A stretch of 64,000 nt of DNA from Planctomycetota bacterium (GTDB lineage: Bacteria > Planctomycetota > Planctomycetia > Pirellulales > PNKZ01). Every line of letters begins with the position of its first letter. Positions within the stretch are counted from its first letter, which is position 1. The stretch covers positions 35,558 through 99,557 of the forward strand of contig JAFEBQ010000004.1 in the NCBI GenBank assembly GCA_018242585.1, read 5' to 3'. Positions 4,714-61,604 of this stretch are shown one piece after another. Position numbers and translations under genes: made by a program. The notes under the pieces are model-generated. The model did no database searches. It was given only the letters and a program-made list of their open reading frames with translations, and was not told the origin of the DNA.

Positions 4714-4736
4714 CTTTCATCGTGGAGCGCTTGCCC

Positions 4737-7865: not shown

Positions 7866-7946
7866 GGCGACGGTCTCCTAGAGGGAAAGAGTGGCTAGCG
7901 ATGCGGCGTGAAACAGTGATGCGATGCGATTCCAATGACTGGGTAG

Positions 7947-8071
7947 CCCTGACAATTCATTGTCAGGGTCGCGAACGCGACAAGAGGGTTCTGTGGCCGG
8001 CCCGCAAGCCGATTGACGCGGAACTCGACCCCCTCTTGTTGCTACGCAACCCCGACAACTAGTTGTCGGGG
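7947..8071 (+). repeat. structured intergenic element: two CCCYGACAA..TTGTCRGGG hairpins flanking a diverged copy of the 157-nt repeat core
   Basis: Hairpins ccctgacaattcattgtcaggg (7947-7968) and ccccgacaactagttgtcgggg (8050-8071). Long-range arms ACAAGAGGG (7980-7988) / CCCTCTTGT (8031-8039). The 17-mer TCTTGTTGCTACGCAAC (8034-8050) is identical to the minus-strand sequence at 61451-61467. Confidence 0.45.
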
Positions 8072-8140
8072 CCACCCAATTCCTCACTTTACATCTAACG
8101 ACTGGGTGTTACACGCCGGTTGGCCATTTCTGTCCCGGGG

Positions 8141-11385: not shown

Positions 11386-11388
11386 GAG

Positions 11389-11409
11389 ACGCGTCACCGC
11401 ATGACGCGT
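11389..11409. terminator. hairpin between convergent stop codons (candidate bidirectional terminator)
   Basis: ACGCGTCA(11389-11396) ccgca TGACGCGT(11402-11409). It lies between TAA 11383-11385 (+) and the stop of the minus-strand gene at 11409-11411. Confidence 0.45.
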
Positions 11410-12311: not shown

Positions 12312-12725
12312 CCCTCGACATTTTTAAGCGATGGAGAGTTCGCCGTGCGCCGTTCATCGTAGCCAGCGCCACCAAGGCCAGCAACGAACATGGGGGTATC
12401 TTGCCGCAGGGCCTGAAAGGGCCCGTGGCGCGGCGTAACGCTTTTACTGGTGGGATGGCTGCGCTCTCCGCGCAGAAGAAACAGGCACGAATTAGGCCGC
12501 ATCGGCGCAATCGTCAATGCCCGCACGGCAATGGGAGTTGGGCCCTAGAAAACCACCTAACTGCAGGTGCCCGTGGGATGAAATCACTTGCTAACCCCCA
12601 GTGGAACCTAGAGTTGTCAAGGAACAGCGGCGAGTTTTCGTCGCGATGAAAGTAACCCTCGCGCGAACCAAGCGCGACTCACACACAGTGCCCCGAGAAG
12701 GGAACTGCTTTACAAGTCCAGGTGG

Positions 12726-13976
12726 ATGATGAAACCAGGATCACGGCGAGTATTGCTGGTCGATAACGACCCGATGTTTCGGCGATTGCTGACGACGCTG
12801 CTGTCGAAAGAAACTGGTTGCGAAGTGCGCCAAGCGCACGGCGGGGCCGAGGCGATCGACGCGGCCGAACTCTGGCGTCCCGATTTGGTGATTCTCGACA
12901 TCTCAATGCCGCGGCTGGACGGCTTTGCCGCCTGCCATGCTTTGAAGCAAGGCAAGTTGAAGCCCGCGCCGCAGGTGATGATGGTCTCGGCCCACTCGAC
13001 GCTGGAAGAGCAAGTCAAGGCGTTCAGCGCCGGAGCCGACGATTACCTGGTCAAGCCGATCGATCATCTGGAGTTTCGTTCGCGGGTCCACCTGCATTTC
13101 CGGCTGCGCGAGGCGCAGGCCGTCGTGAAGCGGTCGCAGCGCAAGCTGCGCAAGCGCCACGCCGAGTTGCAACGGCTGACCAGCGAGCGATCCAGGGAAA
13201 TGCTGGCCACGCAGGACATCGCCATTTTCACCTTGGCCAAGGTGGCCGAGTCACGGGACAACGAGACGGGTATGCATCTGACGCGGATGCGCGAGTATTC
13301 GCAGCTACTGGCCTGCGACTTGCGCGACCGCAGCCCCTATGCGGACCAGATCGACAACACGTTCCTCGACGACTTGTACCGTTCGAGCCCCCTGCACGAC
13401 ATCGGCAAGGTCGGCATTCCCGACGCCGTGCTATTGAAGCCCGGGCGATTGACCGTCGAAGAGTTTGAAATCATGAAGCAGCACGCGTCGATCGGCGCGA
13501 ATATTCTGCAACAAGCCGTCAAGCAGTCGGCCAGTGGCAGCTTTCTGGCCATGGCGGCGTTGATTGCCCAATCACACCACGAGCGGTGGGACGGCACCGG
13601 CTACCCACGTGGGCTGGCCGGGGCTGATATTCCGCTGCCGGGCCGAATCGTGGCCGTGGCCGATGTGTTCGACGCGCTAACGTCCAAGCGGCCCTACAAG
13701 GAACCCTGGCCCGCCGAGAAGGCGGCGCAATATATCGAAGAGCAATCGGGAAGCCACTTTGACCCGGTGATCGTCGACGCCTTCCGTCGCGTGTTGCCGC
13801 GGTTCCTCGACGTGCATCGTTCGTGCGGCGACGACGGCTCGTCGCTGATGAGCATGTTGCAAACCGCCACGGCGTTGAACTCGGCGGACGTGACGACCTA
13901 TATCGAAAGGGCGATGGCATTCACGACCGATGTGCCCGCCTTTATGTCGCGGACTCCGGACATCGTGATGATCTAG
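12726..13976 (+). CDS. response regulator receiver + HD-GYP domain protein (putative c-di-GMP phosphodiesterase, RpfG-like)
   Basis: REC domain: RVLLVDNDPMFRRLL...DLVILDISMPRLDGF...MVSAHS...DDYLVKP. HD-GYP domain: HLTRMREYS...PLHDIGKVGIPDAVLLKPGRLT..EFEIMKQHASIG...HHERWDGTGYPRGL...IVAVADVFDALTSKRPYK. Confidence 0.92.
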   Translation: MMKPGSRRVLLVDNDPMFRRLLTTLLSKETGCEVRQAHGGAEAIDAAELWRPDLVILDISMPRLDGFAACHALKQGKLKPAPQVMMVSAHSTLEEQVKAFSAGADDYLVKPIDHLEFRSRVHLHFRLREAQAVVKRSQRKLRKRHAELQRLTSERSREMLATQDIAIFTLAKVAESRDNETGMHLTRMREYSQLLACDLRDRSPYADQIDNTFLDDLYRSSPLHDIGKVGIPDAVLLKPGRLTVEEFEIMKQHASIGANILQQAVKQSASGSFLAMAALIAQSHHERWDGTGYPRGLAGADIPLPGRIVAVADVFDALTSKRPYKEPWPAEKAAQYIEEQSGSHFDPVIVDAFRRVLPRFLDVHRSCGDDGSSLMSMLQTATALNSADVTTYIERAMAFTTDVPAFMSRTPDIVMI

Positions 13977-14130
13977 AGCAGTTCTCGAAACACTCTCGCA
14001 TGGGTGGCCCAGGTGCTTGCACCTGGGTGGCCGCAGGCCACAAGAAACCTCGGGTGCCGTTCCGCGCGGGTGGCGAGTTTCCCTTTGGGTTGCGCGTGTC
14101 CATCGAGTTTCTTGTTGCTGCGCAACACCG
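13974..14130 (+). repeat. ~157-nt structured repeat, copy A (starts at the TAG stop of the HD-GYP gene)
   Basis: It aligns over its full length with the reverse complement of 61447..61604. Substructures: CCAGGTGC-tt-GCACCTGG; GTGGCC-gca-GGCCAC; long-range ACAAGAAAC...GTTTCTTGT; GTTGC-tgc-GCAAC. It lies between convergent genes. Confidence 0.65.
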
Positions 14131-14209
14131 CATGCTTACGCGCGTTGGCGGCTTAAAGAACCATTCACTCCATCCAGGACGGCGGCGCCGGTGACAACTC
14201 GCGATAAGC

Positions 14210-15565
14210 TCAGGAGTGGGGCTCGTCAATGCTCCATTCCTTGAGCCGGCGTTGCAGCGTGCGAACCGAGATGCCCAGCGTCTCGGCCGTGCGCGAGCGG
14301 TTACCGCTGAACTTTTCCAGCGTCTGGAGAATGGCGGACTTCTCCATGTCGATCAGCGTGGCGTCGTCGGGCAGCGTCCCCAAGCCGGGAGTTGTCGAAA
14401 AGCTCGGCGGCAAGTGCTGTAGCGACAGTTCATCCCCCTCTTGCAGCACGAGCATGCATTCCAGGCAATTGCGCAGCTGCCGGACGTTGCCAGGCCACTC
14501 GTAGCTCTCGAGAAACGTCCGCAGTTCGGGGCTCAGGGCCGGGCGCGGCCGGCGAATGCGCTCGGTCAGGTCGGTGAGGATATGCTCGGCGATCGGCACG
14601 ATGTCCTCGCGATGACTGCGCAGCGGCGGCAACATGATCGTGATCACCTGCAAGCGATAGTACAGGTCTTCGCGGAAGCGCCCCTCGTGCATGAGCGCCG
14701 TCAGGTCTCGACTCGTGGCGGCCACCACGCGCACCTCGACCGAGCGTGGCTCGTTGCCGCCCACGGGCGTGATCATTCGAGTTTCCAAGGCGCGCAGCAG
14801 CTTGGCCTGGGAACTGAGCGGAAAGTCACCGATTTCATCGATGAACAACGTGCCACCGTGGGCCTGGGCAAATCGCCCCTGCCGGTCGACCGTCGCCCCC
14901 GTGAACGAGCCGCGGACATGGCCGAACAACTCACTTTCGACGAGCGACTCGGGAATGGCCGCCATGTTGACGACGACAAACGGCTGATCGTGCCGCGCGC
15001 CTTGCGCGTGAATTCCCTCGGCCACCAACTCCTTGCCGGTTCCTGACTCGCCTTGAATCGTGACGGTGCTGTCTGACTTGGCGGCGCGGGCGATCTGCTC
15101 GCGAACGCGGTCCAGGGCCGGCGAAGTGCCCACCAATTGCCCCGACGGCTTGAACCGTCGGGACGCGGAACGCAGCCGCGGCGTCGGCGGCGGCTGCTTT
15201 TCCTCGTTGCAATAGCTCTCGGCCAGCTTCAGCAACTGGCGCGGGTCGACCGGCTTGGTCAGATAGTCGCGCGCCCCGAGCTTCATGGCGTTGACCGCCG
15301 ACTGCACATCGCCGTAGGCAGTCACCATGATGAACGGCGTGCCTGGCTTGCGCGCCATCCACAGATTGAGCAAATCGACGCCACTTTTTGTGCCCAGGCA
15401 AAGATCGCTCACCACCAGGTCGACCGGACGGTTAATGGTCTCGAGAGCCTCGTCGGGATTGCGCGCGGTCAGGACTTCGTAGCCTTCGATCCGCAGCATC
15501 CGCGATAGGGCTTGCCGCTCGTTGGCGTTGTCTTCCACCACCAGTATGGAATGTTGATTGGCCAC
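14210..15565 (-). CDS. sigma-54-dependent response regulator (NtrC-family enhancer-binding protein)
   Basis: REC: ILVVEDNANERQAL...DLVVSDLCL...MVTAYG...ARDYLTKP. AAA+ sigma-54 activation domain: TIQGESGTGKELVAEGIH, ESELFGHVRGSFTGA, GGTLFIDEIGD, RVVAATSRDL, REDLYYRL. C-terminal Fis-type HTH: RSRTAETLGISVRTLQRRLKEW. Confidence 0.93.
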   Translation of the reverse strand: MANQHSILVVEDNANERQALSRMLRIEGYEVLTARNPDEALETINRPVDLVVSDLCLGTKSGVDLLNLWMARKPGTPFIMVTAYGDVQSAVNAMKLGARDYLTKPVDPRQLLKLAESYCNEEKQPPPTPRLRSASRRFKPSGQLVGTSPALDRVREQIARAAKSDSTVTIQGESGTGKELVAEGIHAQGARHDQPFVVVNMAAIPESLVESELFGHVRGSFTGATVDRQGRFAQAHGGTLFIDEIGDFPLSSQAKLLRALETRMITPVGGNEPRSVEVRVVAATSRDLTALMHEGRFREDLYYRLQVITIMLPPLRSHREDIVPIAEHILTDLTERIRRPRPALSPELRTFLESYEWPGNVRQLRNCLECMLVLQEGDELSLQHLPPSFSTTPGLGTLPDDATLIDMEKSAILQTLEKFSGNRSRTAETLGISVRTLQRRLKEWSIDEPHS

Positions 15566-15580
15566 GATCAGGGTTTCCTG

Positions 15581-22410: not shown

Positions 22411-22497
22411 ATGTACGTAAAGGCTTCGCGCCGCTGGGCGGCCGCGTGGTTGCTGCTCCTTTCGTTTTGCTCGGGGTTCGCGCCGCGCTTGCAGGCC
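22411..22497 (+). other. predicted Sec signal peptide of the giant protein
   Basis: Basic n-region KASRR, hydrophobic core WAAAWLLLLSFCSGF, and LQA-A cleavage-type site. Confidence 0.6.
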
Positions 22498-25400
22498 GCC
22501 CCGCCAGCTAGCGATTCCGTTCCCAACCTCGGCCAGCCGCGAGGGGAAGCGCGTTCCCCGCTAGTCTGGGGCTGGGACCGGCAATCATTGCGACCGATGG
22601 CGCCACAGCCCGCGGCGCCCTTGGCCATTGCCGAGCGCGCCGATTACCGCTATGGCATCGAAGTCGGAGCGCTCGGCATCGCGCGCGAAGCAACTCCGCC
22701 GCCCGCGCGTCGAGCGGCCGATGAAGCCGGCGTATTGACCGAGTCGTTGCTGCCGCTGCGCAGTGGCACGCTCCGCTTCCAAAATGGGCTGTCGCCGATC
22801 TTCACACGCGCGCGGACGCTAACCATCCCGCTGCCCGCTCAATCGCGGCCAGTGCTGTACGTGCCCAATGCCGAAGAATTGCAACAACTGCAACAGCAGG
22901 TGGCGAAGCAACAGGTCAAAGTTGACGCGCTGCGACAAAAAGCCGCACAACGGCGCCAAGCCGAGTTGACGGCGCGCCGCGGCGGTGGCAACGGTTGGTT
23001 CAGCGTCGGCTTCTTCATGCTTGCCGCGCTGGGCGTCGTCGTCATGTGGTGCTGGCTGGCTCGGAGCGCTCGTGTCGGCGGCCCAGCACCGGTCGGCGCA
23101 ATCGAAACCGACCAACTCGATGACGTCTGGGACGAGGAAGCGTTCTTTGAAGAATCGGCTGCGGCCGGTCAGTTCGCGGCTTTGGCCTTGGAGCTCAAGC
23201 GGGCCTTCCTCACCGGACAAGCGCGGATCGACGCCTGGCTCGAACGAGGTGGATTGTTGCGTTGGTGGGACGCGCTGATCGCCGCCTGCGGTTCCATGGC
23301 TCGCGACGCGGTGGATTTGGCGACCGGCACTCGATCAACGCGCCGTCAGATCGCGCGGCGCGTCGGCCACCACGCGCTGGTTTACTGGTGCGTCATCATG
23401 TCGGTGCTCATCGGCCTGCCCCAATCATCACGCGCCGGGACGTTTTACTGGGATCCAAATCAGAACGTGAACAACAGCAATCCCTACAGCCTGGCCACGC
23501 AGATCGGGCTGGGTGGGGCTGGCACGTGGGACAACTTGACCACGATGTGGTGGGATGGCTCGAGTGTTACCGACACCACTTGGAACAACGCCGGCAACGA
23601 CGTGGCGGTGTTCGGCGGGCTGGTCGGCGGGGCCGTCAACTTGCAGGCCGCGGGAATCACCGTCGGCGGCGTGACGTTCAACACCACGGGCTATACGGTC
23701 GGCAGCGCCAACACCCTGACCCTGGGGGGAACGACGGCCACGTTGACGGCCAACGCCAGCGCCACCATTTCGTCGATCCTGGCCGGTTCGGCGAACATGG
23801 TGAAGAACGGCGGTGGCACCTTGACCATCACGGGCGCTTCGACCGGCTTTACCGGCGGCACGACGATCACGGCTGGAACACTGCTGCTCAAACAAGTGAG
23901 CCTGGGCCCCACGGGCACGCCGACGACCATCACCCTGAACAACGGCGGCGTTCTGAACACGTTCGACGCGGCGGCGTTTACGTACACCAACTTGATCAAC
24001 GTCCAAGGGGCGGCCACGATCACCAATGGCGGAAACGTCCCCACCACGATCAGCGGCGGGCTGAACGTGGCCAATTCGCTCTTCACGATTGCTGGCTTTA
24101 GCACCTATACGTTCTCGGGCGCGACGACGCTGGCTGGGCCGATCACGACGTTGAATGTCGGCAACACGGTCTTCCTCTCGGGCAACGTCACCGGCGCGGT
24201 GCTCAACAAGACGGGCGGCGGCCCCTTGGTGCTAAACGGCGGCGCGGGGGTCAACGACAGTTGGTCGTTCACGCCGACGTTCCCCTCGGGCGGCTCGAAC
24301 CCGATGGCCGTGACCAATATCCTGCAAGGCCGCTTGTTATTTCAGGGGGCCAATTCGCAATTACAAGCGGGGACCGTCCTGGTCAATGCCGGCGGTGAAC
24401 TGGAAGTCAGTACTGGCGCGAATCTGAATGCGGGCACGAATATCGTGCTGGCTTCGAGTCTGAATGGCATGGGCGCCCTCGGCTTGAACTCGGCGGTGGA
24501 CATGAGCGCGACGCCGATCGCCAATTTTCAGAACGCGATCGTGGGCGTGTACGGCGGCGCGTTTCAGATCAATAGCTCGACCTATACCTTCCCCATCGAT
24601 CTGTCCAACTTCCTCTGGTCGACCGGGGCTTCGAGCAGCCCGATCTATCTCGGCTCGGCGGCGGGCGGCACGTTAACGGGCACCTTGTCCCCCGACCCGA
24701 CCGGCGCCTATCGCTTGGGTGGGAATCTGTTGAACAACACGCTGACCGTGTCGGGCAACAACACATTTACCAACGCCACGGCCCCGTTGATCATCGGCTC
24801 GCCGATCGGCAACGTGTCAGGCTACAACACCTCGACCGGCGCCACGGTCATCAGCGGCAACAACGCCGGCTACAGCGGCACGGTGACCGTCAACGGCCGC
24901 AGCCAACTGAACCTGGCCGGCACGACCAATCAGAACCCCATCGGCACCGGCGTGATCGATTTGCTCGGCCTGAGCACGTTGAACATCAACGGCAAGTACG
25001 TGGGCACCAGCCCGATGCTGGGTAACACCACCGTCAATGCCTATGCCGGCAGCACGATCCAGTTGAACAACACGGCGTTCACCACCGCCAACACGAACGT
25101 CCGCTTCGATCCGTCAACCGTGCTGAACATGTACGGTTCGACGCTGAATTTCACCGTCTCGTACACGGGTGCCTTGACCACTTCGGCCCAGCAGTTCGCG
25201 ACCTTGAACATGTCGGGCGCGGTCAGCCTTCAGGCCAGCACCACTACCACCAGCGGCACCGGCACGTTGACCTTCTCGGCCTTGAACCGTAACGACAACG
25301 CCACCTTGGCATTCCTGGCGTCGACGACGTCGTACGCCATCATCGGCCGCGCGACCAGCACTGGCAGCGTGCAAATCTTCGCCCCCAATCTCAACGGCAC

Positions 25401-28400
25401 CAGCGCCGCGCCGCCGGTGACCAATGGCATGGTCGCGCCGTGGATGTTTGACCAGACGAACCTGACGTTCATGAATTACGGCGCGACCGGCTTCATCGAC
25501 GCCCCCTGGACATCAACCCTGTCAACGGGCACGATCGGCGCGAATCCCACCGGGCTGGTCGTGGTCACCGCCAACATCAACACCGCCGCCGGCGCGTCGG
25601 CCTGGGCGTTCCGCACGGCCAACAACATCGGCGGTACGACCCTGACCATCGGCTCGGGTGGTTTGATTCAGACCGGCGGCACGATCTCGGCCCCGATCGT
25701 GTTCGGCTCGGTGGGGACGCCCGTCGAGGCGGTGCTTATCAACACAGGCAACGCGACCATCTCGGGGGCCATCACGGCCAACGGACTGACACGCACGGGC
25801 TCCACCGGTACCACGTTGACGATCAGCGGAGCCAACACCAACCTGACCGGCACCATCACCGTCAACGCCGGCACGTTGTCGGGCAGTCAGACCGGCTTGA
25901 ACTACCGGCCCATCTTGCTGAACGGCGGCACGATCGACTTTAACAATGGCACGGTCTTTTATCAGAACAACATCACGGTCAACGGCGACGCGCAGATGAG
26001 CGACTCGAACGGCGGTCAGCCGCGGTTGGGCACGTTGCAAGTAAACGCCCGGCCAAACGATCCGACCGACCCGATCGTGTTGTCGATGGTGAACCAGAAC
26101 TTCGACATCGGCACGACCACGCTCGGCGGCAACACGATCTTCAACGTCACCTCGGGCACCACCCGGATCGACGGGCCGTTGGTGGGCGAGGGCGTCTCGT
26201 TCACCAAGTACGGCGGCTCTTTCCTGTTCATCGACAGCACGACCAGCAGCTTCACCGGCTCGGTCACCGTTAACCAAGGGTTGTTGCTGCTGGCCACGGG
26301 GAACAATGCCGGAGACACACCGCTGGGTACGGCGGGTAGCACGGGGAACCCGATCGTCGTCAACCCGGGGGGCAACCTGGGGATCACCAATACGACCGTC
26401 TCCGGCGTGACGAACGTAACCTTGACCAGCGACACAGGCGGCCTGGCAGGCATCGGTCTGGCCTACTCGGGTAACGCGGGCTTGCCGTTGGCAAGCTCGC
26501 TGTCGTTGACGATCAACTCGGCCAATTACTCGGCGCCGTTTGGTGGCGTGGTGAGCATCAATGCCACCGGCTTCAGCGCGCCAATTGACTTTGGCAACAT
26601 CTTTGGCCAGTCCAATTGGTTCCTCGGCTCGAACTTTGGCGGCAGCTTCACCGGCACGCTCACTCCGGACACCAACGGGGTCTATCGCCTGGGGGGCGGC
26701 GGCAGCACGCTCACCCTGGTGGGCGGCAACAACCAAATCAACAACAGCACCTTCACCGGTGGCGTCACGGTGCAGTTCGGCGCCATCAGCAACTATTACC
26801 AGGCCAGCAGCGTCGCGCTGTTTAATGGCAGCGGCAACGTGCAAATCGCGGTGGCGAACAACTACAGCGGTTCGTCGATCATCAACGCGGGCGAGACCGT
26901 CTTCGCGGCCAACAACAACGCGCTTGGCACGAGCACCATCTTCTTTAACGGCGGTGGGCTGGCGGCCGATTCGTCCTCGGGGCTCCCCACGCTCAGCGCG
27001 CTGCGGACCATCACGAACACCATCGGGTTCTACGGCGACGCGGTGTTCACCAACACGCCCAGCTTGGTGATTGCCGGACAGGTGAACCTGGGCGACGGCA
27101 TCACGGGGGCGAACCGGACCTTGACCATCAACAATGCCGCCACTTCGAGCACGTCGGACGGCATGGTAATCATTACCGGCACGATCTCCGATGGCATCAA
27201 CGGCGCGGCCAACAACAGCCTGACCAAAGGTGGCGCCGGCGTGCTGGCCCTGACCAATACGAACAACAGTTGGACGGGTGCCACCAACATCAACCTCGGC
27301 GAAATCCTGGTCACCAACGACTCGCAAATCTCGTCGCAGTCGTTGATCACGATGAACGGCGGCGGTCTGGCGGCCTGGACAACCTCGTTCACCACCGACC
27401 GGCCTTATGTCCTGTACGGCCTCGGCCTGTTCGACGTGGGGGCGGGTGTCACCCTGACCCAGGCGCTCGACGTGGCCGGCAACAGCAACCTGAGCGGCGC
27501 CGGTGCGCTGAACAAGCTGGGCCTCGGCACGTTGCTGCTCAATGGCGTCAACTCGTACACCGGCATTACCACGATCAGCAACGGCATTCTGGCCGTCAGC
27601 GCCGACGTGAACCTGGGTGACGTGCCGACCAAGCAGTCGGTCACCATTCAGGGTGGCGTGTTGCAGGTGCTCAACACCACCGCGAATTTAGGCTCGTTCA
27701 CCACCTCGCGCAATATCGCCGTCACCACGTCGGGCGGAATCGATATCGCGGCCGGCGCGACCGCAACCGTTGCCGGCGTGGTAAGCGGCACGGGCTTGTT
27801 GACCAAGCTTGGCGGCGGCACGTTGTTCGTCGCGGGCAACAACACCAACACCGCGGTGGCGATCCAAAACGGCGTCCTGCAAGCCAGCGGCAGCCTGCCC
27901 TTCGCGGCCACGGCCACGCTCAGCTTCAACGGCGGCACCCTGTCGCTGAAGAACCTTGCCGCCAATCAAACCGTCACGACTTCGGGAGCTTCGACGTACG
28001 GCGGCGGCGGGCACTTGGAAATCATCGCGGGTGCCACCACGACGAGCACGTTTACCATGTCGGGCGCGCTGACTCGATCGGGCTTCGGCACGTTGATCCT
28101 CAACCCGGGGAGCACCAACACCCTGGGCGTGACGACGGCCGGCGGCGTGCGCTGGTTGCAGACGGGCAACATCAACGGCGTGGCCGCGGCGTCGGCCAAT
28201 GTGAGCGGCGTCGGCATCTTGCCCGCCAGCATCATCGTCGAGACCAATGGCATTGGAAACTTCGCGGTCTCCAGCGGCGGCACGGTGGGCGTCAGGTCGT
28301 ACTCGGGCGCCGTGGTGACCGATCTGGTGAGCACGCCGCTCCAGCCAACGGCCATCGCCTCGATCAGCGCGACCCAGAACCTGACCGGCACCAGCAGCAT

Positions 28401-31400
28401 TTACGCTCTGGCCACGTCGGCCGATATCACCGGCGGCACGCTGCTGGTCGAAAGTTTGTCCAACACCAATCAAGGTGGCATCCTCGTCAATGGCAACGTG
28501 ACCATCGGCGCGAACTTGATCGCTGACGCCACCTATGCCACCGGAACCACCACATCGGGCGAAGTCCTGCTGTACGTCGCGCCGGGCTTTACGGCCTCGG
28601 TCACCGGCAACGTGGTCGCCAACAGCTTCACCAAATTCGGCACGGGCACGCTCAACTTGAGCAGCGCTGATTTTTCCGTGCTGGGCGCCGTGACGGTCCA
28701 AGAGGGAACGCTGCGCATCGGAGCGGGCGCTGGCAATTTGTTCTCTCCCGGACAGACGCAGTTGTTCTTGAACAACCAGGGCACGTTGGATTTGAATGGC
28801 CAATCGCTGATGGTTGCCGGCCTGGGTAACACGGCGGCCGTCACCGGTGGCATCGCCGGCGGCATCGTCGGTAACAGCAGCAACACCAACGCCACGCTCC
28901 GCGTCAACAGCCCCAACGGCGCCGTCACCACCTTTGGCGGCGTGATTCAGGACAACCTGGGGTCGGGCACCGGCAAGGTCACGCTCAACAAGAACGGCCA
29001 GGGGACGTTGGTGCTGTCGAACTTCTCGACCAGCAACGACCAAGCCAGCCAGAACAGCTTTACCGGCGGCGTGAACCTGACGGCCGGCACGTTGACGATT
29101 CAAGACCCGCAGGCCCTCGGCGGCGCCAATGGCACGACGCCTGGCGCGGTCAACCTGTATGGCGGCACGCTGAACCTGAACAGCAACGGCGGCGGCTTCA
29201 ACAGCGCGATCATCCTGGGCAATCCGACGACCACGGGGCTGACGCTGAATCTGCTCGGCTCGGCGGCGATCAACGTCGATCGCACCACGGCCTCGACCAG
29301 CTACACGGGAAACTACTTCCAAATCGGCACGCTGAACCTGGGTGAGAACACCCTGTCGGTGACCGGCGCCGACAGTTATGGCCTGCAAGTGCAGGACGCC
29401 GTGAACATTCTGGGCAACTACGCCGTGATCGCGCCAGGGACCGGATATCCCAGCGGCACCCTCAGCCTGGCAGGCGTCATCAGCGGCGGCGCGCTCGACA
29501 TCAAAGCCCTCGGCAACTACACCTTCACGACGGTCATCGCCGGCAATAGCAACACCTACACCGGCGGCACCAACATCCTGACCGGCGCGCTGCAGATCGT
29601 CCCGACCAGCGGCACGCCGCTGGGCAGCGGGCGCGTCGAGGTGTTTCCGGGGGCGGTGTTGCGGTTGTCGAGCACCTTTGGCAACGACGGCACGATTGGC
29701 GGCGCGGCGCTGCAAGTGCTGAGCACCAAGAGCACGATGGGGGTGGTGGCCCTCGACACGAGCATTGATCCCTCGACGCTCCTGACATCCAGCAATTTCA
29801 ATAGCGCTTATAGTGTTTTGCTGGGCATCTCGACGCCGTACTTTTCCCAACCGCTCGACATGTCGACCATCGGCAATGGCCGCGCGTTCCTGGGCGGAGC
29901 GCTGAACCAGGAAGTCGACTACACCGCCGCGACGCTCGGCGCGGGCGCCGCCGAGCCGATCATCACGACGCTGACCGGCGTCAGCACCCCGGTTTATCGA
30001 CTGGGGGGCGGCGTCAACAGCCTGGCCCTGGTCGGGCCCGACAACCTGCTGACCGACAAGGGGGGCGTGCCGACCTTCGTTCAGTTTGGCAACCCGAACA
30101 GCAATGTCGCCTCGGTCACGCTGGGTGGTGGCACGATCTACATTCGTGAATCAAACAACTACACCGGCGGCACCCAGATCGCCAAGTCAACCACCGTCGA
30201 AATCGACGTCGGTTCCGGCCCGGCCGGACAGACGCCGCTGGGAACTGGCACCGTTGAGGTGTATGGCACGCTGCAAGCGGGCCTGCCGGGGGGCTATAAC
30301 GGCGTGGCTTCGTTCTTCAATGCCGCCACGGGCACCAACTCGGTCAACATCCAGATGCGGCCGGGCGGTTCGTTGCTGATCTTCGACGCGCCGGGGAACG
30401 TGCCCGGGGGCCAGGGCCGCTGGGGCGACAATGTTCCGCTTGACTTGAACGGCGGCACCTTCCGTTTCTTGGGCGCTTCGTCGTACGACTCGTCCGAGAC
30501 GATCGGCGTGATCACCGTTAACAAAGGCTCGACCTTGTTCGTCAACCGCGGCGCGGCCGGCAACGCGGCTTTGACGATCGGCGGCACCAATGCCACGACG
30601 GCCGGCCTGGTGCGCGGGACCGGTGGCACCTTGCAGATTCAGGTGTCGACCAGCTCGTTCCATGCCTTGGGCCAGGCCGACGGTGTCGGCACTTTGTCTG
30701 GTCAATCGGATCGCTTGATCGTCAACGGTGGCATCAGCGGGATTGGTGGATTGAGCGGCGTGACCAACACCGGCAGCGGCGTGATCGCCGGCGGCGTCGG
30801 TATGGCCGCGCCGTGGATCGTCGACCTGACCAACCTGACGTACGTCACCTATGACCCGTCGGGCCTGGGGACCGGCTTCCAGGATGTGTTGCCCAATAAC
30901 GCCTCACCGGCGGCAGGCCAAGTCGGCTATAGCCAGATTGTCAATGGCGCGGTCTTTGGCGCCGGCGCGAGCCCGGGCCAGGACACGATCGATGTCGAAG
31001 TCGCCGCCACGACCTTGTCGTCGAACATCGACGCCTGGGCCATGCGCATCGGCGCCCAGACCACCATCAACCCCAACGGTGCGTTCAATCAAATCACGCT
31101 TGAGAGCGGTGGTTTGTTGGTGGCCGCGGCCTCCACGCTGGGGGCCGCGACGACATCGACCGGTATGTTGGGTTTGCCGGCGCCGATGACTCTCTACTTT
31201 GGCAACAGCAGCACGAGCACCCCGACCGAAGCCATCATCTACAACAGCACGACCGTGACGATCAACGCCCAGATCGTCGCCAACGGCCTGACCAAGTTTG
31301 GCGCAGGCCAACTCGATATCTTCTCGAGCAACCCGTCGTTGTCCGGGACGATCACGATCAATCAGGGCAACCTCATGGTGTTGAACTCGATTAGCGGTAT

Positions 31401-34400
31401 CGGCACCACCGTGGCCGGCGCGCTCAACGGCCAGAATGTGGTGCTCAATGGCGGCGGCTTGGTGATCGATGCCTTTGTCGGCAACGCCTCGACCGCCACC
31501 CAGGCGTCGAATATCCGCGCGACAAGCTACCTGGGGAGCAATGTCACCGTCAACGGCGACGCCGCGATCACCAACAATGGCCAGTCGACGCTGCAGCGAA
31601 TCAACGCCCTGACACTGGCCGATCTTGGCCCGCACAGCCCGATCAATCTGACGATTCAGGGCATCGCCGTCATGGGCCCGGTGACCTTGGGGGCCAATAA
31701 CAACAACATCATCGCGTCGTTCGCCGGCATGGCGAATGAAATCTTCTATGGCCAGGTCAGCGGCGGCATGCTCAGCAAGTGGGGCAATGGCACCCTGACC
31801 TTGGTGAACCCCACCAACAACTACTCGGGGGGCACGATCGTCAACGGCGACGCGCAAGGCACGGCGACCAGCGTGCTGGCCAGCATGACCAAGACCGGGA
31901 CGCCGTTCGGCACCGGGCCGATCTCCGTCAACCCGGGCGGCATGTTGCGGATCATGGACCCCAGCAACATCGCCAACCAGACCGTCACGTTGAACAGCGA
32001 CGGCATCGGGCTGGCCGGCCTGGCGCTGGCCTATAACGGTCCCGCGCCGACGATCACCACGTCGGGCACGGCCCAGAACGGCCAGGTGCTGGTCCAGTCG
32101 AGCGGCGACTTTGGCGGCGTGCTGGCCTTGGACATCAACTTCTACACCCAAGCGATCAACCAGGCCACGTTGGGCAACGGCAAGATGTTCCTGGGAACGT
32201 CGACCAGCAACACATACTTCAACGCCACGCTCACTCCCGGCGCGCCGGACAGCGGAACCACGCCGGTCTATCGTCTGGCCAGCGGCGGCAATCAGGGTAC
32301 CCTCAGCCTGGGTGGCGGCTTCTTCGAGAACGTCTTGACCGCGGCCAGCAGCCCGACCGGCACGGTCAGCGTGCAGATCGGCGCCGCCACCGGCGCCGAT
32401 CCGACCAGCACCCTGGCCACCTACGTGAACGGCAACGGCTCGTTGGCCTTGAACAATCGGAACAACCTGACGGCCGGCAGCATCGTGCAAATCAACGGCG
32501 GCGCGGTGCCGGTCATCAGTCAGAACAACACCAACGGCGCGAACCTGAACCTGGGCAACAACCTGGCCCTGGGCCAGGCGACGCTGGTCTTCAACGGCGG
32601 CAACCTGACCGACTCGACGTCGATTGTCTTGCCGGCGGTCAACAACCTCGTCCTGCTGGCCGACACCATGACCGCCAGCAACGGCTCGGAGATCGACATC
32701 CTGGGGAACGTGAACATGTCGCCGTCGGGCGTCGGCGCCACGCGAACCTGGAACATGACCAGCTCGACCTTGGCCATCGACGGCGTCGTCAGCGGCGTCG
32801 CCGGCTCGGACCTGATCAAGACCGGCAACGGCTTGTTGCTGTTGGGTGGGCAGAACACGTACCTCGGCACCACGACGATCAACGCGGGCACGGTGCTGGT
32901 CAGTACGAACGTGCTTGCCAACCAGAACGGCGCGCTGGGGAACAGCGACACGCCGGTCATCCTGGGCAATGCCGGCACCAACACCGCCGGCAGCATGGGC
33001 TTGGCCGGGCAGGTCACGTTTGGCCGCGACATCCAGACCACGCCCAACGGCACCGCGTCCAACAATCTGTATGGCCAGGCGCTCGCCTATGCGAACATCA
33101 CCGGCGGCATCAACTTGACGGGCACGATGAGCGTGCTGCAATTCAGCTCGACGACCAACACCGGCGGGATTCTTGATCTGCAAGGGGCGATCAGCGGCAC
33201 GGGGGCCCTGAGCCTGGGCGCCCAGGTGAGCACCCAATCGGGCACGGTGCGCATCTCGGGTAGCACCAACGGGCTAAGCGGCAACAACTTTACCGGCGGC
33301 GTAACGCTGGCGGGCGGGCGGCTGCAGATCGGCGCCGACACTTATTACACCGGTTCCACCAATTCGGGCACGATCCTGAGCGGCCCGTTGGGAACCGGCA
33401 CATTGACGCTCAGCGGGACCGGCGTCGTGCTCGAAGCGTACGGCGCGGCGCGGCTGATCATGAACCCGCTCGGCGCGCTGTCTTCGACCAGCGCCACCAC
33501 GGTCGCTTTTGGCGGACACAACAGCTTGACCTTTGCCAACTCCACGGCCTTCAACATCAACAGCTCGGCGTCCAGTCTAGCGCGCACGTTCAACGTGCAG
33601 ACCACGCAAGGCGTCGTCACCATCATGGCGCCGCTTACCCAGACCGGCACCACGTCGCTGACCAAGACGGGGGCCGGCACGTTGGTGCTGTCCGGCGCGA
33701 ATGCCTTCTCGGGCGGAATCACCATCTCGCAAGGCACGTTGGAAGTCTTTGCCGACAACAACCTGGGCGCGGTCACCTCGACGTCGAACAACATGACGCT
33801 CGGTTCCGCCAATAACTATGCCCAATTGATGCTGGGCGGCGGCTCGTCGCTCGTCTGGAACTCGGGCCTTGGCAATAGCAACCGCGTCTTGACGTTGGCT
33901 GGGCCGTCGTCGTTGAACTTGCTGGCCGGCAGCAGCTTGAACATCAACACCAAGGTCACGGCCGCGGCGGCGAACCCGCTCAGCGTGATCGGCCCGGGCA
34001 CGTTGTCCTTGAACAACACCACGAACGCCATCGTCAACCTGATCGTCGGTGGCGACCCGTCCGGGGGCGGCATTGTCCAGACGACGGCCACCTTGGGCAC
34101 TCCGTTTACCACGGGCGCGGGCAACAACGTGACGCTCTACTCGGGCGAGTTGTTCGTCAACAATTCCGCCGGAGCGGCGGCTCAGTCGATTACCATCGGC
34201 GCGCTGAACTACGCCGGCGGCGGTTATGTGGCAATGGCCATGGGGTCTGTCGCCACCACCACTTCGACGTTGATCGCGACGGCGCTGACGCGCCAAGCGC
34301 AAGGCACGATCATCATCTCGCCGTCGGCGCTGGCGAATCTGGGACTCACGGAAAAGTTCGCCACCGGCACGGCACAGTCGGTTACCAACGGCATGCTGAC

Positions 34401-37400
34401 CTTGCCATCGATCGTCGTGCAAGACGTGACCGCCAGCCCCGTGACGGCCGGCGGCATTGTCTACGGCGACCTGAACTTCGCCGCCTACAACGCCAGTTCA
34501 GGCAGCTTTGTCGTCAACACGACGAGCACGACGAGCTCGCTCGACGCGAGCAACGCGACCAGCCTGGCGGCCCTGATCGCCAGCACCACCGTCGGCACCG
34601 CGGCGGGCCAGACGATTGACATCTATGCCGTGCAGACCAGCGCGAACATCAGCCCGTTCGATCCGACCAACGTGCTGCGCATCAACAACGGCGGTTTGAT
34701 TCTGAACGGCACGACGAGCGCGCCCTTGGTGAGCGCGAACCTGTTCTTTGGCACCTCGTCCAGCGCCACCGAGGCGCTGGTCTACGTGCGCGGCGGCCAG
34801 ACCGGCTTCTCGACCATCTCGGGCAATATCACCGCGACCAACTTCACCAAGGCGGGGGCCGGCAGCCTGGTGCTGAGTGGCACGAGCAACTTGCTCACCT
34901 CGTCCACCACGACCAGCGTCGCCACCGTGGCCATCGACCAGGGCGTATTGCAGTTCGCCGGCCAGAGCGCCGTGTTCAGCAGCACGTTCTCCTCGGGCGC
35001 GAGCGCGTCGGGGCTGGTCAATATCGCGCCGGTTGACCAGGGGACGTTGGACCTGAACGGTCAGAACCTGACGTTTGCCGGCCTGGGCTTCGCCAACTCG
35101 TCGACCTCGACGGGCATCGTCACCAACTCGGCCGGCACGACCGCCTCGCTGACCCTGAACGGGTACAACCAGACGACCACGTTCAACGGCGCGCTGAGCG
35201 GCAACCTGAACCTGAACAAGACCGGCAGCGGCACGCTGGTCCTGGGCAATAACAGCAGTTACAGCGGCACCACGACGATCTATGCCGGACAGATTTTCAG
35301 CGCCAGCAGCAGCTACTCGGCGAACGGCGCCGTGCAGATTCAAGGCGTCACCAGTCTGGGCACGGGCCCCATCGTGCTCGCCGGCGGCGCCTTGACGATT
35401 AGCGCCGTCCTCGGCGCCACGGCCATCGCGGGCAACGAGGTGGAGGACAACATCAGCGTGCTTCAAATCGGGCCCAACAACGGTTACGACGTCACCGTGG
35501 CCGCGTTGAACAACTACGGCGCGCCAAACACCACCAGCAATATCTCCGCCACGGGCGCCGCCGCCTGGCAGGTCATCAACTCGCTGAACGTGTTGGCGCC
35601 GGTGGTGTCCTTTGGCGGCAGCGGCTCGAATATCTTGGTCCGCGGCGGCGCCACCTTCAGCGGCACCGTGGCCGGCATGAATGTGGTGATGACCGACGGG
35701 GCGGGCGGCACGGTGACAAGCAATAGCGCGGTCATCAACGTCGTCAACCAGGTGGTCTTGGGTGGCCCGGTGTCCGCCCCTGGCAGCGTGATTACCAAGA
35801 TCGGTGGGAGCACGTTGTTCTTGACCAATACGGGTGACCAGGGCAACGCGGCCAATAACGTCGGTGCCTGGCAGGTGGAGGTCGGCACGATCGAAACACG
35901 CGTCACGGGGGGGGGCGTCAGCCCGCTCGGCCCCAACGCGACCTTGATTCTCAACGGCGCGTCGTGGAACCTGCGCGACGATGGCGACAACACCAACAAT
36001 TCACAACTGTTGACCGAGTTCCAGAACAACACGATCCAGATCGGCTCGCTCGGCTCGATCACCAGCATGAACTATCAGTCGAGCGCCAATGCGACGATCG
36101 ACTCGCGCACGCTTTCGCTCGGCAATAACAAGACGGTCCTCATCAACAACCTCGTCTTTGGCGGGCCTTTGGGAACCGCTTTCCTGTCCCCCACCGGCGC
36201 GAACAACTACTCGTACCAGATCAACAACCTTTCGCTGCAGGGGCGTGACGCGGCCTTGAGCATGGGCCTCAGCATGACCGTCAACAACCTGAGTGGAAAC
36301 GGCACCCTGTTCCGCCAAGGCGGAGCCACGTTGTACATCAATGGGAACAACAGCACGACCGGCAACACGGGCGGCACGGTCATGGCGGGGGGCACCTTGG
36401 CGTTTGGCTCGCTGATGGGCACCAACCTGATCCAACTTAACAACAGCGCGACCCTCGGCCCCGGCAACATCACGATTCAGCCCGGCGCGATCGTCCGCTT
36501 CAACAGCCCCACGAACCTGGCCAACGCCGGGCAGTTGGTCGATGTCCGCAGCAACCTCTCGAACCTGGGCATCCTGGGCATCGGCGACAACTCGCCCATC
36601 GCCAGCTACAACCTCCGCACGCCCATGGCCGCCGGCGCCTATAACAGCAGCATGGTGCTGTCGCTGGGAACCGGCGGCGGCATTTTGGCGATCAACACCC
36701 AGAACTACTCCCAGGCCATCGACCTGTCGCGCATTGGCGACGGCAGTTGGTACTTGGGTTCGACCAGCAACGGCGTCGGTCTGAACGGCAGCTACGACGC
36801 CACTTCGTTGGGCGTCGGCGCCGCCTACAACTTTGGCACCAGCAGCAGCCCGATCAACCAGGCGGCTTATCGCCTGGGTGGCGGCGGCGCGTCGCTGTTG
36901 ATCAACAACTCGGTGCTGGTCGGCAACGCCGGCGTGGTGGTCGGCTTGCCGCGCACCAATGCGGCCAACGCCGTCGGCAATGGCACCGGCACGGTGATTC
37001 TCGGCAGCGCGCAAAGCTACACGGGGCCAACCGAAGTTTACAGCGGCAGCACGCTCGAGTTCCGCGGCCAACTGAGCACCAGCCAGATCGAGACGTTCGG
37101 CCTGGTCACGGCCGGCGGCGCGGGGGGAACTTTCGTCAATTCGACCGGCACCGGCAACATCGCGGTCCTGGCCCGCCCGGGAAGTGAAATCCGCCTCGAC
37201 AACCAATTCGACCTGTTGCCCAACTCGGCCACGAACGGCCGCTGGTTCGACACCGCGCCGGTCAACTTGGACAGCACCATCCTCCGCTTGATCGGCAATT
37301 TCACCACGGACATCCGGGAAACCGTCGGCCAGGTCACCGTCACCGGCGGCTCGTTGATCATCGCCAATCGCAGCTTCAACGGCCGCGCCACCGAACTGGA

Positions 37401-40400
37401 CATCGCGGGCGTCACGCGGTCGACGAATGTCGCGGTCACCGGTTCGAGCGGCGTGTACACGATCGCCGGCAACAACGCCATGTTGTCGATCGAAGGGGCG
37501 GCGAACACACTGGGCGCCGACGAGCGCGTGATCATCACCACTCCGGCCAACGTGCCCACCGTGACCAATGGCATGGTCGCGCCGTGGATGGTCGACCGCA
37601 ACAATAGCCAGTTCCTCACCTACAGCACCACGGACCTGGGCTTTATCGACGCCGGCTTCACGTTGTCGATGAGCGGCGGGCTGGCCGGCGGGATCACCGG
37701 CGGCACCGATCGGGCCTATTTCACGGCCTCCACGACGTTCTCGGGCGGGAGCACGATCGATGTCTACGCGGCGCGCGTCGACGCCTCGCTCAGCCTGTCG
37801 TCCTCGTTCAACGGCGAACAATTGATCCTGGAAAGCGGTGGCTTGCTGGTCGGCGGCGCCGCGGCTCCGACCATCTTGCCGCAATTGGTCTTTGGCACGC
37901 CGACCGCGTCGACCGAAGCGATGATTAGCATCGGCAACAGCGGCAGCGCCAACTTGACGCTCGGTGACATCACCAATCCAAACAGCGGCGCCGGCCAGCT
38001 CTTGGCCACCAGCATTTCCAAGTTCGGCGACGGCGTGCTGACCTTGGTGGCGAACCAGCCGAACTTCACCGGCAACATCGCCGTCGATCGCGGCACGGTG
38101 TCGCTCCAGTCGGTCGCCGGCGGCGCTTCCACCGCCGGTGGCAGCAACGTGGCCCCGTCCTTCACCGCCGGCGCCGTCGTGCTGAACGGCTTCAACACCA
38201 CGCTCAGTTTGGGCCTGGGCGGAGCCAACGGCACGGCCAGCACGTTTAGCAATTCGATCGTCCTGGGACCAAACAACCCGCTGGCCACCTTGGCCGTGCT
38301 GAGCGCCGTCGGCCAGACCACCACCACCAGCACGGCGTTTCTGACGGGTGGTTTGCTGTTCGGTGGCGCGCCGGGCGAACAAGGACAGACGCTGCAGGTC
38401 ACCAATCCATCGGGCACCACCAACTCGATCCAGATCAACGGGTTGGTCGATTTGGGCACCGGCGGCAACGTGACCGTCGCCACGACAACCACGGCCACCC
38501 TGACCTTGGCCGGACAAGTCGTCGGTAGTTCGACCCTCATCAAGAACGGCGCGGGCTTTGGCAGCACCGGTGTGCTGGCGTTGTTGAACACGGCCAACTT
38601 GAACACCTACACCGGCGGCACGGTGCTCGTGTCCGGCACGATGTTCGTGTATGGCTCGAATAGCGCCAACACGGCCACCTATTCGGCGCTGGCGACCGGC
38701 GGCCTGGGCTCGGGCGCGGTCACGCTGGACGGCGGCACGCTAAGCCTGAGGATCGCGGCTGACGCCACGACGACGTTCAAGACCATCACCTTCGCCAACG
38801 ATCTGGTCGTGAATGGAAACTCCACGATTGTCGTCGATCGCGGAGGGACCGGTATCGACACCACCAGCACCACCAAGAACCTGGCTTTCAATAGCCTGTC
38901 GATCGGCTCGCAGAACCTGACATTGCTGGGCGCTAACGCCTTCTCGTTGGGCGTGATGGGCACGACCACGTTGTCAGGCTCGCCGATTCTCACTCTGGCC
39001 AGTTCCGACCTGGTTCTCAACGGCTCGGTGACCGACAACGGCTCGAACCAGGCCTTGATCAAGAACGGCCCGAACAACTTGTGGCTTAACAACGGGACGG
39101 CGACGTTCACCGGCACCTACAGCAGCGGCACCACGATGAACGTGTCGTCGACCTTGGGCTTGTACGTTGGCCAAACGATCAGCGGTGGCACCTTGCCCGC
39201 CGGCGAGGTGATCACGGCGATTGGCACCAACACGATTACGCTGGCCATCGCCCCCTCGGGAGCGTTCTCGGGCCAGTCGATGTCGGCCACCAACGGCGCG
39301 AGCTACACCGCCTCGGGGGGCATTGATGTCAACATGGGCTTCCTCCGCTTTGGCAACAGCTCGGCCAGCGGCGGCAATCCGAATCCCTTCGCCACCGCGG
39401 GAACGGGCACGCTGACCATCAACCCCGGCGCCGGGATCATCATCGAAGGGCTTGGCAACCTGAACAGCGGCCAGGTGGTCGACGTGCGCAGCATCGCTTC
39501 GAGCTTGGCGCAGTTCGTCATTCACGGCAACTTCGACCCCACCTCGTACATCAGCAACACATCGAGCGGCGTGCTGGCCCTCTATAGCACGACCTTTACG
39601 ACGGCCACTGGCACCACGGCGTTGAATATGTCGGCCATTGGCGACGGCACGTTCTACCTGGGGGCCAGCCAGGGAGGCTCGGTCTACTCACTCAGCGGCT
39701 TGCTCCCAGGACGCAACACCGATGGGCAAAGCGACATCTATCGCCTGGGGGGTGGCGGCACGACCTTGACGCTGTCGGGCGGCATCGCGGGGCCGTTGCT
39801 GGCCGATCAGTCGGTTGGCATTCCGCCCGTCCAGGTTGTCATCGGCTCGTTGGCCACCAACGGCACCGGCACCGTCGTCTTGAACCAAACCAACGCTTAT
39901 ACCGGCGGAACGATCATTTCGCGCGGCTCGGGGGCGATCATCGTGTCGGGCGGCGCGAATGGCATGCCGTTCGGCGGCGCGGTCGCGCCGTCGTTCACGG
40001 CCACGTACGATGGCAATTTCTCCAGCTTGGTGGCGGTTTCGTCGGGCGTTGGCCTGACGCAGAACCAGGTTCTGAACGGCGCGGGCTTGGACCCGAATAC
40101 ATCGATTGTTACCTTCTCGGGCTTGAGTCTGGCGACGACCACCGCGACCGGCTCGATCAACGCCTTTAACATTACGGTCGGCTCGACCGCCGGCTTGTAT
40201 CCTGGCATGTTGCTCACCTCGGGCGCGGGCGTCCCGGCCGACACCACGATCGTCGCCATCTCGGGAACGACCGTCACGTTAAGCAATCAGTTGACCGCGG
40301 CCTTATCCTCGGCGTCGATTAGCGTCTCGCCGACGATTGTCTTAAGCACCATGCCGTCGGGCGGCGCCTTTACCGGGGCACTGACGGCGGGTGGCTATAC

Positions 40401-52839: not shown

Positions 52840-53080
52840 AGCAGTTCTCGAATCTCGGTAGCGAGCGTGTCTACCAAGCCGGTGGCTTTGCCACCGATCT
52901 CGGCGGCAAAGCCGCGTATAGCGAATCGGCACGCGATGCCCTGAGCTAGGCGACCAGAGTTCACATCTGCCAGGTCGCCATCAAGGCGTGAAAGATTTGA
53001 CTCGGTCCGCGCACTAGCTGATATTGGGCCGGCTCTCGCCTCGTACGCCCATCTAGCCCCAACCTTGCCAAGGCCCCGCC

Positions 53081-60958: not shown

Positions 60959-61384
60959 ATGAAGACCAAATCGGGGCTGTTGTTGGTGGTTGGTGCGGCG
61001 CTGTTTCTGGCGGCGTCGGCGTCGGTGGCTTTTCCGCCCGACAAGCCCGCGGCGGCGACCAGCGAGCTGAGTCTGCGCGTCGAAGAAGCCCAGGCCTACG
61101 TCCGGCTGTACGAGATACGCCTGCTTAACGCCAAGGTGATCGCCGAACAGGAAGGGCTGAAGTGGGACAACGTCAACGCCACGTTCGCACAACTGGAAAG
61201 GGCCTTCGAGAAAGGGGCCATTTCCGACAAGAGCTTCCGCGAGGGGAAGGAACAATTCGAGTGGTATCGCTTGCAAGACAAGATTCAGGACTGGCAGGAG
61301 ATCGAAGAGGAACTGAACATCGCGAAAATCAGGCTGCGCATGGTCGAGCGCGGCATGGTGGTCTACGGCGGCGACAAGCCATGA
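60959..61384 (+). CDS. secreted coiled-coil hypothetical protein (141 aa)
   Basis: Signal MKTKSGLLLVVGAALFLAASASVA. AGGAAA lies upstream of the ATG. Codon usage resembles neighbouring genes. No family recognised. Confidence 0.65.
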   Translation: MKTKSGLLLVVGAALFLAASASVAFPPDKPAAATSELSLRVEEAQAYVRLYEIRLLNAKVIAEQEGLKWDNVNATFAQLERAFEKGAISDKSFREGKEQFEWYRLQDKIQDWQEIEEELNIAKIRLRMVERGMVVYGGDKP

Positions 61385-61446
61385 GGGGCGATTGAGCTTT
61401 GCCGAAAGCGGCAATCAGAATCGGGTAGCACCAGTTGCTCGTCAAC

Positions 61447-61604
61447 CGGTGTTGCGTAGCAACAAGAAACTCGATGGGCACGCGCAACCCATATGGAAAC
61501 TCGCCACCCGTGAGGGACGGCGCTCGAGGTTTCTTGTGGCCTTCGGCCACCCAGGTGCAAGCACCTGGTCCACCCCCCGCTACGGTCTCTTAAGAGCTGT
61601 TCTA
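61447..61604 (-). repeat. ~157-nt structured repeat, copy B (starts at the TAG stop of the SDR gene)
   Basis: Its reverse complement aligns end to end with 13974..14130. It has the same four stem elements, with changes confined to loops (GCA/GAA, TGC/TAC) and one ~16-nt variable segment. It lies between convergent genes. Confidence 0.65.

Follow-up and report, generated by a model that had tools for sequence, protein, structure and literature searches.

A 64,000-nt stretch of a genome assigned to Planctomycetota (GenBank assembly GCA_018242585.1, contig JAFEBQ010000004.1, positions 35,558 to 99,557), referred to below as the window, contains three intergenic copies of a repeat, denoted here A, B and D. 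All window positions are counted from the first nucleotide of this stretch. We consider these repeats to be REPINs, that is, doublets of repetitive extragenic palindromic (REP) sequences that are non-autonomous partners of a REP-associated tyrosine transposase (RAYT), and estimate the probability of this assignment at about 85%. The elements were classed as REPINs since a RAYT gene bracketed by the same repeat halves is the defining arrangement of REP/REPIN systems; the definitions of REPtron and REPIN follow PMC6006769. The kind of element is known; this REPIN family of Planctomycetota is not listed in Rfam and, in this form, did not appear in our literature searches.

The original prediction, made from the letters of the window, had described A and B as the two full copies of a ~157-nt structured repeat beginning at TAG stop codons, and had proposed for them the role of a bidirectional terminator or 3'-UTR stabiliser, of a small non-coding RNA (ncRNA), or of a mobile palindrome resembling a REP or a miniature inverted-repeat transposable element (MITE). 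The mobile palindrome was borne out by the REP doublets and the RAYT association, whereas the terminator and ncRNA roles were not.

The repeat family and its transposase

The core motif TCTTGTTGCTNCGCAACNCCG, common to all three window copies and also written TCTTGTTGCTNCGCAAC, was found in at least 120 metagenome stretches, against a roughly estimated chance expectation of a handful (~7 stretches). The related loci (L with a number) are mostly metagenome stretches picked by this DNA motif alone from among the matches listed; L125 and L126 come from RAYT homologues. All listed matches have the same layout. The 5' half consists of GGGT(G/A)GC, a REP hairpin, a small hairpin with a C-GNA-G loop and AAGAGG; after 40–100 variable nucleotides the 3' half follows with CCTCTT, GTTGC-TNC-GCAAC, a second REP hairpin and GC(C/T)ACCC. 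The element is thereby made of two composite units in inverted orientation with their tags outward, and is ~135–200 nt long. The REP hairpins vary by contig (ACGTnnnACGT, ACGATTTTCCG..., CCGGTTG..CAACCGG, GACAA..TTGTC, CAGGTGC..GCACCTG), whereas the inner module, that is, the small hairpin with AAGAGG, is kept across the lineages in which they differ. A GT[AG]G tag lies 5' of the hairpin in the large majority of 71 non-redundant metagenome elements and is degenerate in a minority.

A covariance model, R1, was built from 22 family members. With both strands counted, it gave 225 + 39 matches in the 120 listed loci, many of them without the exact search motif. Both strands of nearly all elements are recognised by R1, so that the element is a long imperfect inverted repeat, and the long-range stem noted earlier is its inner part. 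The copies cluster in tandem, with up to six in 1.7 kb of L087. The original prediction hinged on further copies and covariation, and both were found, with R1 and with the family alignment.

Open reading frames (ORFs) between neighbouring elements encode transposases of the Y1 HUH type, in which the motifs DHVH and Y(M/I)HxNPVRAGLV are present. The four enzymes that were scored reached 105–117 bits on the NCBIfam model NF047646, "REP-associated tyrosine transposase" (cut-off 80), and 30–36 bits on NF033573, transpos_IS200, which is below its cut-off of 55; Pfam Y1_Tnp matched as well. By tblastn, RAYT genes were found in eight of the 120 listed loci (L014, L028, L032, L071, L087, L094, L095 and L108), always adjoining an element. 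In L087, L032, L108, L071 and L094, the last with a degenerate 3' half, one 5' half and one 3' half enclose the RAYT ORF exactly; in L028 and L095 the elements that flank the gene are short and complete. The reverse test started from database homologues of the L071 enzyme, which belong to named Pirellulales, Planctomycetaceae, Isosphaeraceae and Planctomycetota and to a few Desulfobacterota, and elements were again found at RAYT genes. In L126, from a metagenome-assembled genome of Pirellulales (GCA_035656635.1), the RAYT gene has two elements upstream and three downstream (42–75 bits), and in L125 it is embedded in one pair of halves. Altogether, a RAYT gene between halves or flanked by full elements is present in at least 10 independent contigs.

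One of these genes, the RAYT ORF at 4383–4925(−) of L071, runs into the 3' half-element, and its TAA stop codon lies in the loop of the REP hairpin. Gene ends can therefore overlap REP sequence in this family.

Insertion is without target-site duplication beyond chance: a flanking direct repeat of at least 2 bp is lacking in 70 of 79 elements, compared with 71.5 in the shuffled control. This bears on the possibility that the repeats are non-autonomous derivatives of a true IS200/IS605 insertion sequence (palindrome-associated transposable elements, PATEs) or MITEs of a DDE transposon, and not RAYT-dependent REPINs. The Y1 gene within a single pair of inverted ends in L087, L032, L108 and L125 is indeed reminiscent of an insertion sequence, and the short elements resemble internal deletions of that unit. 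We nevertheless regard such an origin as very unlikely. The enzymes score above the RAYT equivalog cut-off and below that of IS200; their tyrosine motif Y(M/I)HxNP belongs to the TnpA-REP class, whereas IS200 has Y(I/V)ENQ (table in PMC6006769); the ends carry the GT[AG]G tag; and L126 has a multi-REPIN "REPtron" layout. A MITE of the DDE type is further opposed by the duplication statistics given above and by the Y1 transposase as the associated gene.

Other searches were negative. Rfam 15 gave no match at the gathering score for the whole window and 12 related loci, and at E <= 10 around copy A the matches were at chance level. In a plasmid collection searched by BLAST the element had no match, and its flanks gave only unrelated short ones. 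A three-anchor pattern derived from A and B had three chance matches in unrelated taxa of a genome collection, the pattern being too specific to the A/B subfamily. In the literature we found no description of this REPIN family in this form.

Anatomy and fold of the window copies

Copy A occupies 14002..14130 on the plus strand (R1 score 50.8 bits, E = 2e-11). Its tag GGGTGGC (14002–14008) is followed by the REP hairpin CCAGGTGC-TT-GCACCTGG (14009–14026), the small hairpin GTGGCC-GCA-GGCCAC (14027–14041), the inner box AAGAAAC (14042–14048), a variable centre, GTTTCTT (14107–14113), the small hairpin GTTGC-TGC-GCAAC (14114–14126) and ACCG (14127–14130). Here the homology to B ends, and the 3' REP arm has been lost; the R1 match spans 14002–14200, where the 3' arm can be placed only as a 5-bp stem with a 58-nt loop.

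Copy B is complete and lies on the minus strand at 61423..61575 (79 bits on the minus strand, 53 bits on the plus strand). In its own direction it consists of the tag GGGTGGA (61575–61569), the first REP hairpin (61568–61551), the small hairpin GTGGCC-GAA-GGCCAC (61550–61536), AAGAAAC (61535–61529), a variable centre 91% identical to that of A, GTTTCTT (61470–61464), the small hairpin GTTGC-TAC-GCAAC (61463–61451), the second REP hairpin ACCGGTTG-ACGAG-CAACTGGT(G) at 61450–61429, and the closing CTACCC (61428–61423). With the last two, which are absent from A, the copy continues 24 nt beyond the end assigned to it earlier.

Copy D, which a sensitive self-comparison of the window revealed through a third occurrence of the 3' motif TTGTTGCTRCGCAACMCCG at 8036, is also complete and occupies 7941..8077 on the plus strand (93.3 bits on the plus strand, 87.9 bits on the minus strand). 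Its 5' half is GGGTAGC, CCCTGACAAT-TC-ATTGTCAGGG, TCGC-GAAC-GCGA and CAAGAGGG, and its 3' half is CCCTCTTG, TTGC-TAC-GCAA, CCCCGACAAC-TA-GTTGTCGGGG and CCACCC. The long-range inner stem is ACAAGAAAC/GTTTCTTGT in A and B and differs from it in D by compensatory changes, to ACAAGAGGG/CCCTCTTGT. In the window, a GGGTGGC/GGGTAGC tag stands directly 5' of an 8–10-bp hairpin at 7941(+), 8077(−), 14002(+) and 61575(−), and also at 61423(+); no further REP singlets (tag plus hairpin) were found in the window outside A, B and D.

With these boundaries, the earlier description is in part retained and in part revised. The end-to-end alignment of 13974–14130(+) with 61447–61604(−) was confirmed (85% identity over ~157 nt), as were all the stems named for the two copies. 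Both similarity blocks do open with TAGARCAGYTCT, whose TAG is the stop codon of two unrelated genes. The family-conserved element, however, opens at GGGTGGC (14002 and 61575), 28 nt past each TAG, and not at the TAG itself. Likewise, two copies are real and yet not the two full copies that had been claimed, given that a third lies at 7941–8077 and that A has no 3' REP arm. The fold is affected as well: within the limits drawn originally it was no better than that of shuffled sequence (z = −1.3 and −0.9), while the corrected elements fold better than shuffled DNA (z = −5.7 for D and z = −3.9 for B).

The gap-free core shared by A and B (14002–14130 and 61447–61575, 129 nt) is 91% identical and is the sole long inverted repeat in the window. 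As even the variable centre is shared at this level, A and B appear to be recent copies of one master element. These 129-nt inverted repeats are separated by 47 kb that include a giant surface-protein gene and a sulfatase cluster, and recombination between them would invert the intervening segment. Three other readings of the pair were set aside. Coding read-through past the TAG fails since the frame is open for 59 codons in A and shut after three codons in B. The two copies are not the ends of a 47-kb transposon: their flanks are two different complete convergent genes, with no target duplication. Integron attC sites are improbable, as the copies do not stand in arrays and are not co-oriented with cassettes.

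In the alignment fitted to the model, 94.5% of cells are paired, compared with 82.3% in column shuffles, and double-sided changes occupy 669 cells compared with 219; none of 500 shuffles reached the observed values. When the partners were slid by 1–3 columns as a control, pairing fell to ~40–47%. The strong covariation spans six helices. This, together with the 21-nt core conserved across many contigs, would be expected of a free-standing structured ncRNA gene or a riboswitch-like cis-regulator. Such a role is nonetheless extremely improbable. No Rfam family matched, the model matches both strands, the copies are several and form tandem arrays, and they have no fixed orientation to neighbouring genes. 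Moreover, the mismatches in forward rows are skewed in opposite directions in the two arms, the ratio of G.T to A.C being 13:2 for the 5' hairpin and 6:15 for the 3' one (small counts that are not independent); this skew fits each REP arm folding on its own tag strand, and not one RNA strand.

The small inner hairpins carry their C-GNA-G loops on opposite strands, the second one reading TNC on the forward strand (e.g. 14027–14041 and 14114–14126). GNA triloops of the d(GCGAAGC) type form exceptionally stable DNA mini-hairpins, and the loops therefore fit a role in single-stranded DNA.

Position relative to genes and the TAG motif

The gene context was evaluated with a crude gene caller based on GC content at third codon positions, applied to 119 elements non-redundant by their flanks, of which 66 were classified as intergenic. 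Among these 66, 20 have the direction of the flanking tandem genes and 18 the opposite one, while 14 lie in convergent-gene gaps and 14 (~21%) in divergent-gene gaps. The count of copies abutting stop codons, which the original prediction had called for, gave distances to the neighbouring stop from ~0 to >900 nt. With 20 versus 18 directions and such a range of distances, the family neither prefers an orientation nor is generally tied to stop codons.

A and B themselves occupy convergent-gene gaps, 25–90 nt from stop codons, and the elements fold into very stable hairpins. E. coli REPs stabilise upstream mRNA. Both copies could therefore be thought of as primarily RNA 3'-end elements, either bidirectional terminators or 3'-UTR stabilisers; mRNA stabilisation by E. 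coli REPs is discussed in PMC3733652. We find this quite unlikely as the primary role. The search for intrinsic terminators around A and B gave one weak internal match per region, not above shuffles, and no T run follows the terminal hairpins of A, B or D, so the proposed terminator gained no ground from hairpin-plus-T-run sites. In addition, 14 of the 66 intergenic elements lie between divergent genes, the orientation to genes is random, and the RAYT association accounts for the origin and spread of the elements without a role in RNA. By analogy with the E. coli REPs, it is plausible that the hairpins of the two convergent gaps also act on the 3' ends of mRNAs, but such an effect would be secondary.

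The TAG motif deserves separate treatment. TAGARCAGYTCT occurs three times in the window compared with 0.15 expected, and in all three cases a gene ends at its TAG. The first site, TAGAGCAGTTCTCGAA at 13974..13989(+), comprises the stop codon of a gene for a response regulator with an HD-GYP domain and 13 further nucleotides, and lies outside the family-conserved REPIN. The second is a variant of the same motif, TAGAACAGCTCT at 61593..61604(−), and comprises the stop codon of a dehydrogenase gene and 9 nt. The third, TAGAGCAGTTCTCGAA at 52837..52852(+), is identical to the first in 16 of 16 positions, and its TAG ends a 10,142-aa ORF. Downstream of this site there is no REPIN but GGTAGC-8 nt-CTACC, which may be what remains of a REP.

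A palindrome that moves specifically to stop codons or makes them itself, with a unit beginning at the TAG, would explain why three motif sites fall on real stops, a coincidence extremely unlikely by chance, and why two of the three have a REPIN 28 nt downstream. The rest of the evidence makes this quite unlikely. The motif is missing from 124 related loci (~0.8 Mb); family members occur at all distances from stops and also between divergent genes; copy D has no motif; the third site has no REPIN. The 28 nt between TAG and tag are ~59% identical between A and B, compared with 91% in the core. Finally, the HD-GYP protein and its closest homologue have tails of equal length, and the homologue likewise ends in TAG. 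The stop codon thus was not created by the element, and from this comparison it looks native. The stop-codon idea fails for the family and survives as a local curiosity of the window.

A narrower version is that TAGAGCAGTTCT(CGAA), 12–16 nt over TAG stops, is a preferred docking site of REPINs or a separate stop-coupled element. We consider this unlikely. If it were true, a RAYT/REPIN system would be tied sequence-specifically to gene ends, for example through recognition of YTAG similar to the tetranucleotide targets of IS200/IS605. Three readings of the motif are possible: a target preference of the REPIN/RAYT system of this genome, a lineage-specific 5' extension of the repeat, or an independent 3'-end signal. 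The second one is suggested by another lineage, in which at least 55 nt 5' of the tag are conserved.

In that lineage (L019 at 3914–4110 and 8370–8565, and also L007, L020, L039, L092 and L100), the conserved stretch upstream of GGGTGGC reads TCACGGCGAGGAGCAAC..CCTGTCCGAAGTCA...CTTCTGA. Judged by its sequence, it lengthens the repeat unit in this lineage and is a parallel to the TAG motif of the window.

The genes adjacent to copies A and B are as follows. Upstream of A, the HD-GYP response regulator gene (12726..13976, +) ends at the TAG. On the other side, 14210..15565(−) is convergent with it. The Pfam scan of the window proteins gave a single protein with a sigma-54-interaction domain, and this gene is taken to encode it since its product matches the L004 sigma-54 regulator at 36%. 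Near B, the gene of a 141-aa protein (60959..61384, +) is convergent with the short-chain dehydrogenase gene (61602..62375, −), which ends at the TAG upstream of B; copy B starts 39 nt past the stop codon of the former.

The HD-GYP protein has its best relatives in Pirellulales, with the closest homologue on contig L004. Window positions 6315–13976 are collinear with this contig at 69–81% protein identity. The collinear locus of L004 lacks copy D; its intergenic region is ~155 nt shorter, and the sequence on both sides aligns with the window. The synteny breaks right after the HD-GYP gene, that is, at copy A (window 13977–17100 versus L004 6652–7990). At the break, the window has copy A and two regulator genes (14210–17083), and L004 has a single GerE-type gene; the two window regulators match the sigma-54 regulator (36%) and a histidine kinase (29%) of L004, respectively. 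Collinearity returns ~3 kb further on, at window 17472. Given the inverted pair formed by A and B and the position of A at the break, such elements may matter for local rearrangements.

Several observations concern other features. The 10,142-aa ORF (22411..52839, +) contains passenger-associated transport repeats (PATR) throughout; its product has a PEP-CTERM sorting motif and then an unusual extra acidic tail of 25 aa before the TAG. Upstream of this giant gene, the ORFs in ~5 kb (17100–22400) are all short and have a weak GC signal at third codon positions, and this region may be non-coding, regulatory or degraded. In L117, a c-di-GMP-I riboswitch (64 bits) was found at 9356–9448; it is unrelated to the REPIN element.

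Proposed mechanism and comparison with known systems

The assignment to REPINs has to be weighed against several points. Transposition is inferred here rather than observed. No RAYT gene was found in the 64-kb window by tblastn and a Pfam scan of the window proteins. The presence of D in the window and its absence from L004 form a single comparison, in which gain and loss are not polarised. The TAG motif beside A and B is not explained by the REPIN model. The conservation of the inner module, as seen in the sequences, exceeds what a plain REP spacer needs, and as the search motif lies in this very module, the sampled family is biased towards elements that keep it. Lastly, the covariation was measured on an alignment that is fitted to R1 and includes both strands, with many rows being population variants.

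The mechanism that we propose draws on general knowledge of RAYT and IS200/IS605 enzymes and on PMC6006769. The RAYT would be encoded at one or a few other loci of the genome, would recognise GT[AG]G-tagged hairpins in single-stranded DNA, and would cut and rejoin them. Doublets without a RAYT gene would be moved or copied in trans and would reach new intergenic sites with no target duplication. The short elements look like the unit bracketing the RAYT gene minus the gene itself, and copy A probably lost its 3' arm after A and B had been copied from one master. The inner module, constant while the REP hairpins diverge, is a good candidate for the recognition or cleavage region of this RAYT lineage.

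On this assignment, the three repeats of the window and at least ~130 in related contigs can be annotated as REPINs and not as candidates for RNA genes or terminators. The family presents the relation between transposase and repeat cleanly, with the same composite halves placed around either a RAYT gene or a short variable filler. To our knowledge, REPINs have hardly been studied in Planctomycetota.

The best-known REPINs and RAYTs are those of Pseudomonas fluorescens SBW25 (Bertels & Rainey 2011) and the bacterial interspersed mosaic elements (BIMEs) and REPtrons of E. coli (Ton-Hoang et al. 2012), both considered here as presented in PMC6006769. Similarly to them, the planctomycete elements are inverted pairs of GT[AG]G-tagged hairpins, are extragenic, with three copies in the 64-kb window and up to six in a related contig, insert without target-site duplication, and have a repeat-flanked RAYT gene. 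They differ in that the unit is composite (REP hairpin, small C-GNA-G hairpin and AAGAGG box), the inner module is conserved while the REP hairpins differ, the elements are longer (135–200 nt), the RAYT gene lies within a single pair of halves in several contigs, and the host phylum is Planctomycetota.

Di Nocera et al. (2013, PMC3733652) describe GTAG-tagged REPs arranged as "head-head" dimers, including the families GTAG-20 and GTAG-21 of Rhodopirellula baltica, as well as many tyrosine transposase genes with flanking repeats in that species. In those dimers, too, the tags point outward, the spacers are 20–100 bp long and in some cases conserved, carrying complementary ends or small stem-loops, two different REPs may be joined as a heterodimer, and the location is mostly near gene 3' ends. 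The REP and spacer sequences of the R. baltica families differ from ours as far as the peptide read-outs in the supplement show.

With IS200/IS605 and PATEs the family shares a Y1 HUH enzyme, subterminal hairpins at both ends, the lack of target duplication and short non-autonomous derivatives. Unlike IS200/IS605, the planctomycete enzyme scores as a RAYT, and the ends are GT[AG]G-tagged and form inverted repeats. The Correia MITEs of Neisseria are similar as ~150-nt intergenic inverted-repeat elements often located beside gene ends. However, those are DDE-derived and have target-site duplications, whereas the planctomycete elements show none beyond chance and their enzyme is a tyrosine HUH transposase.

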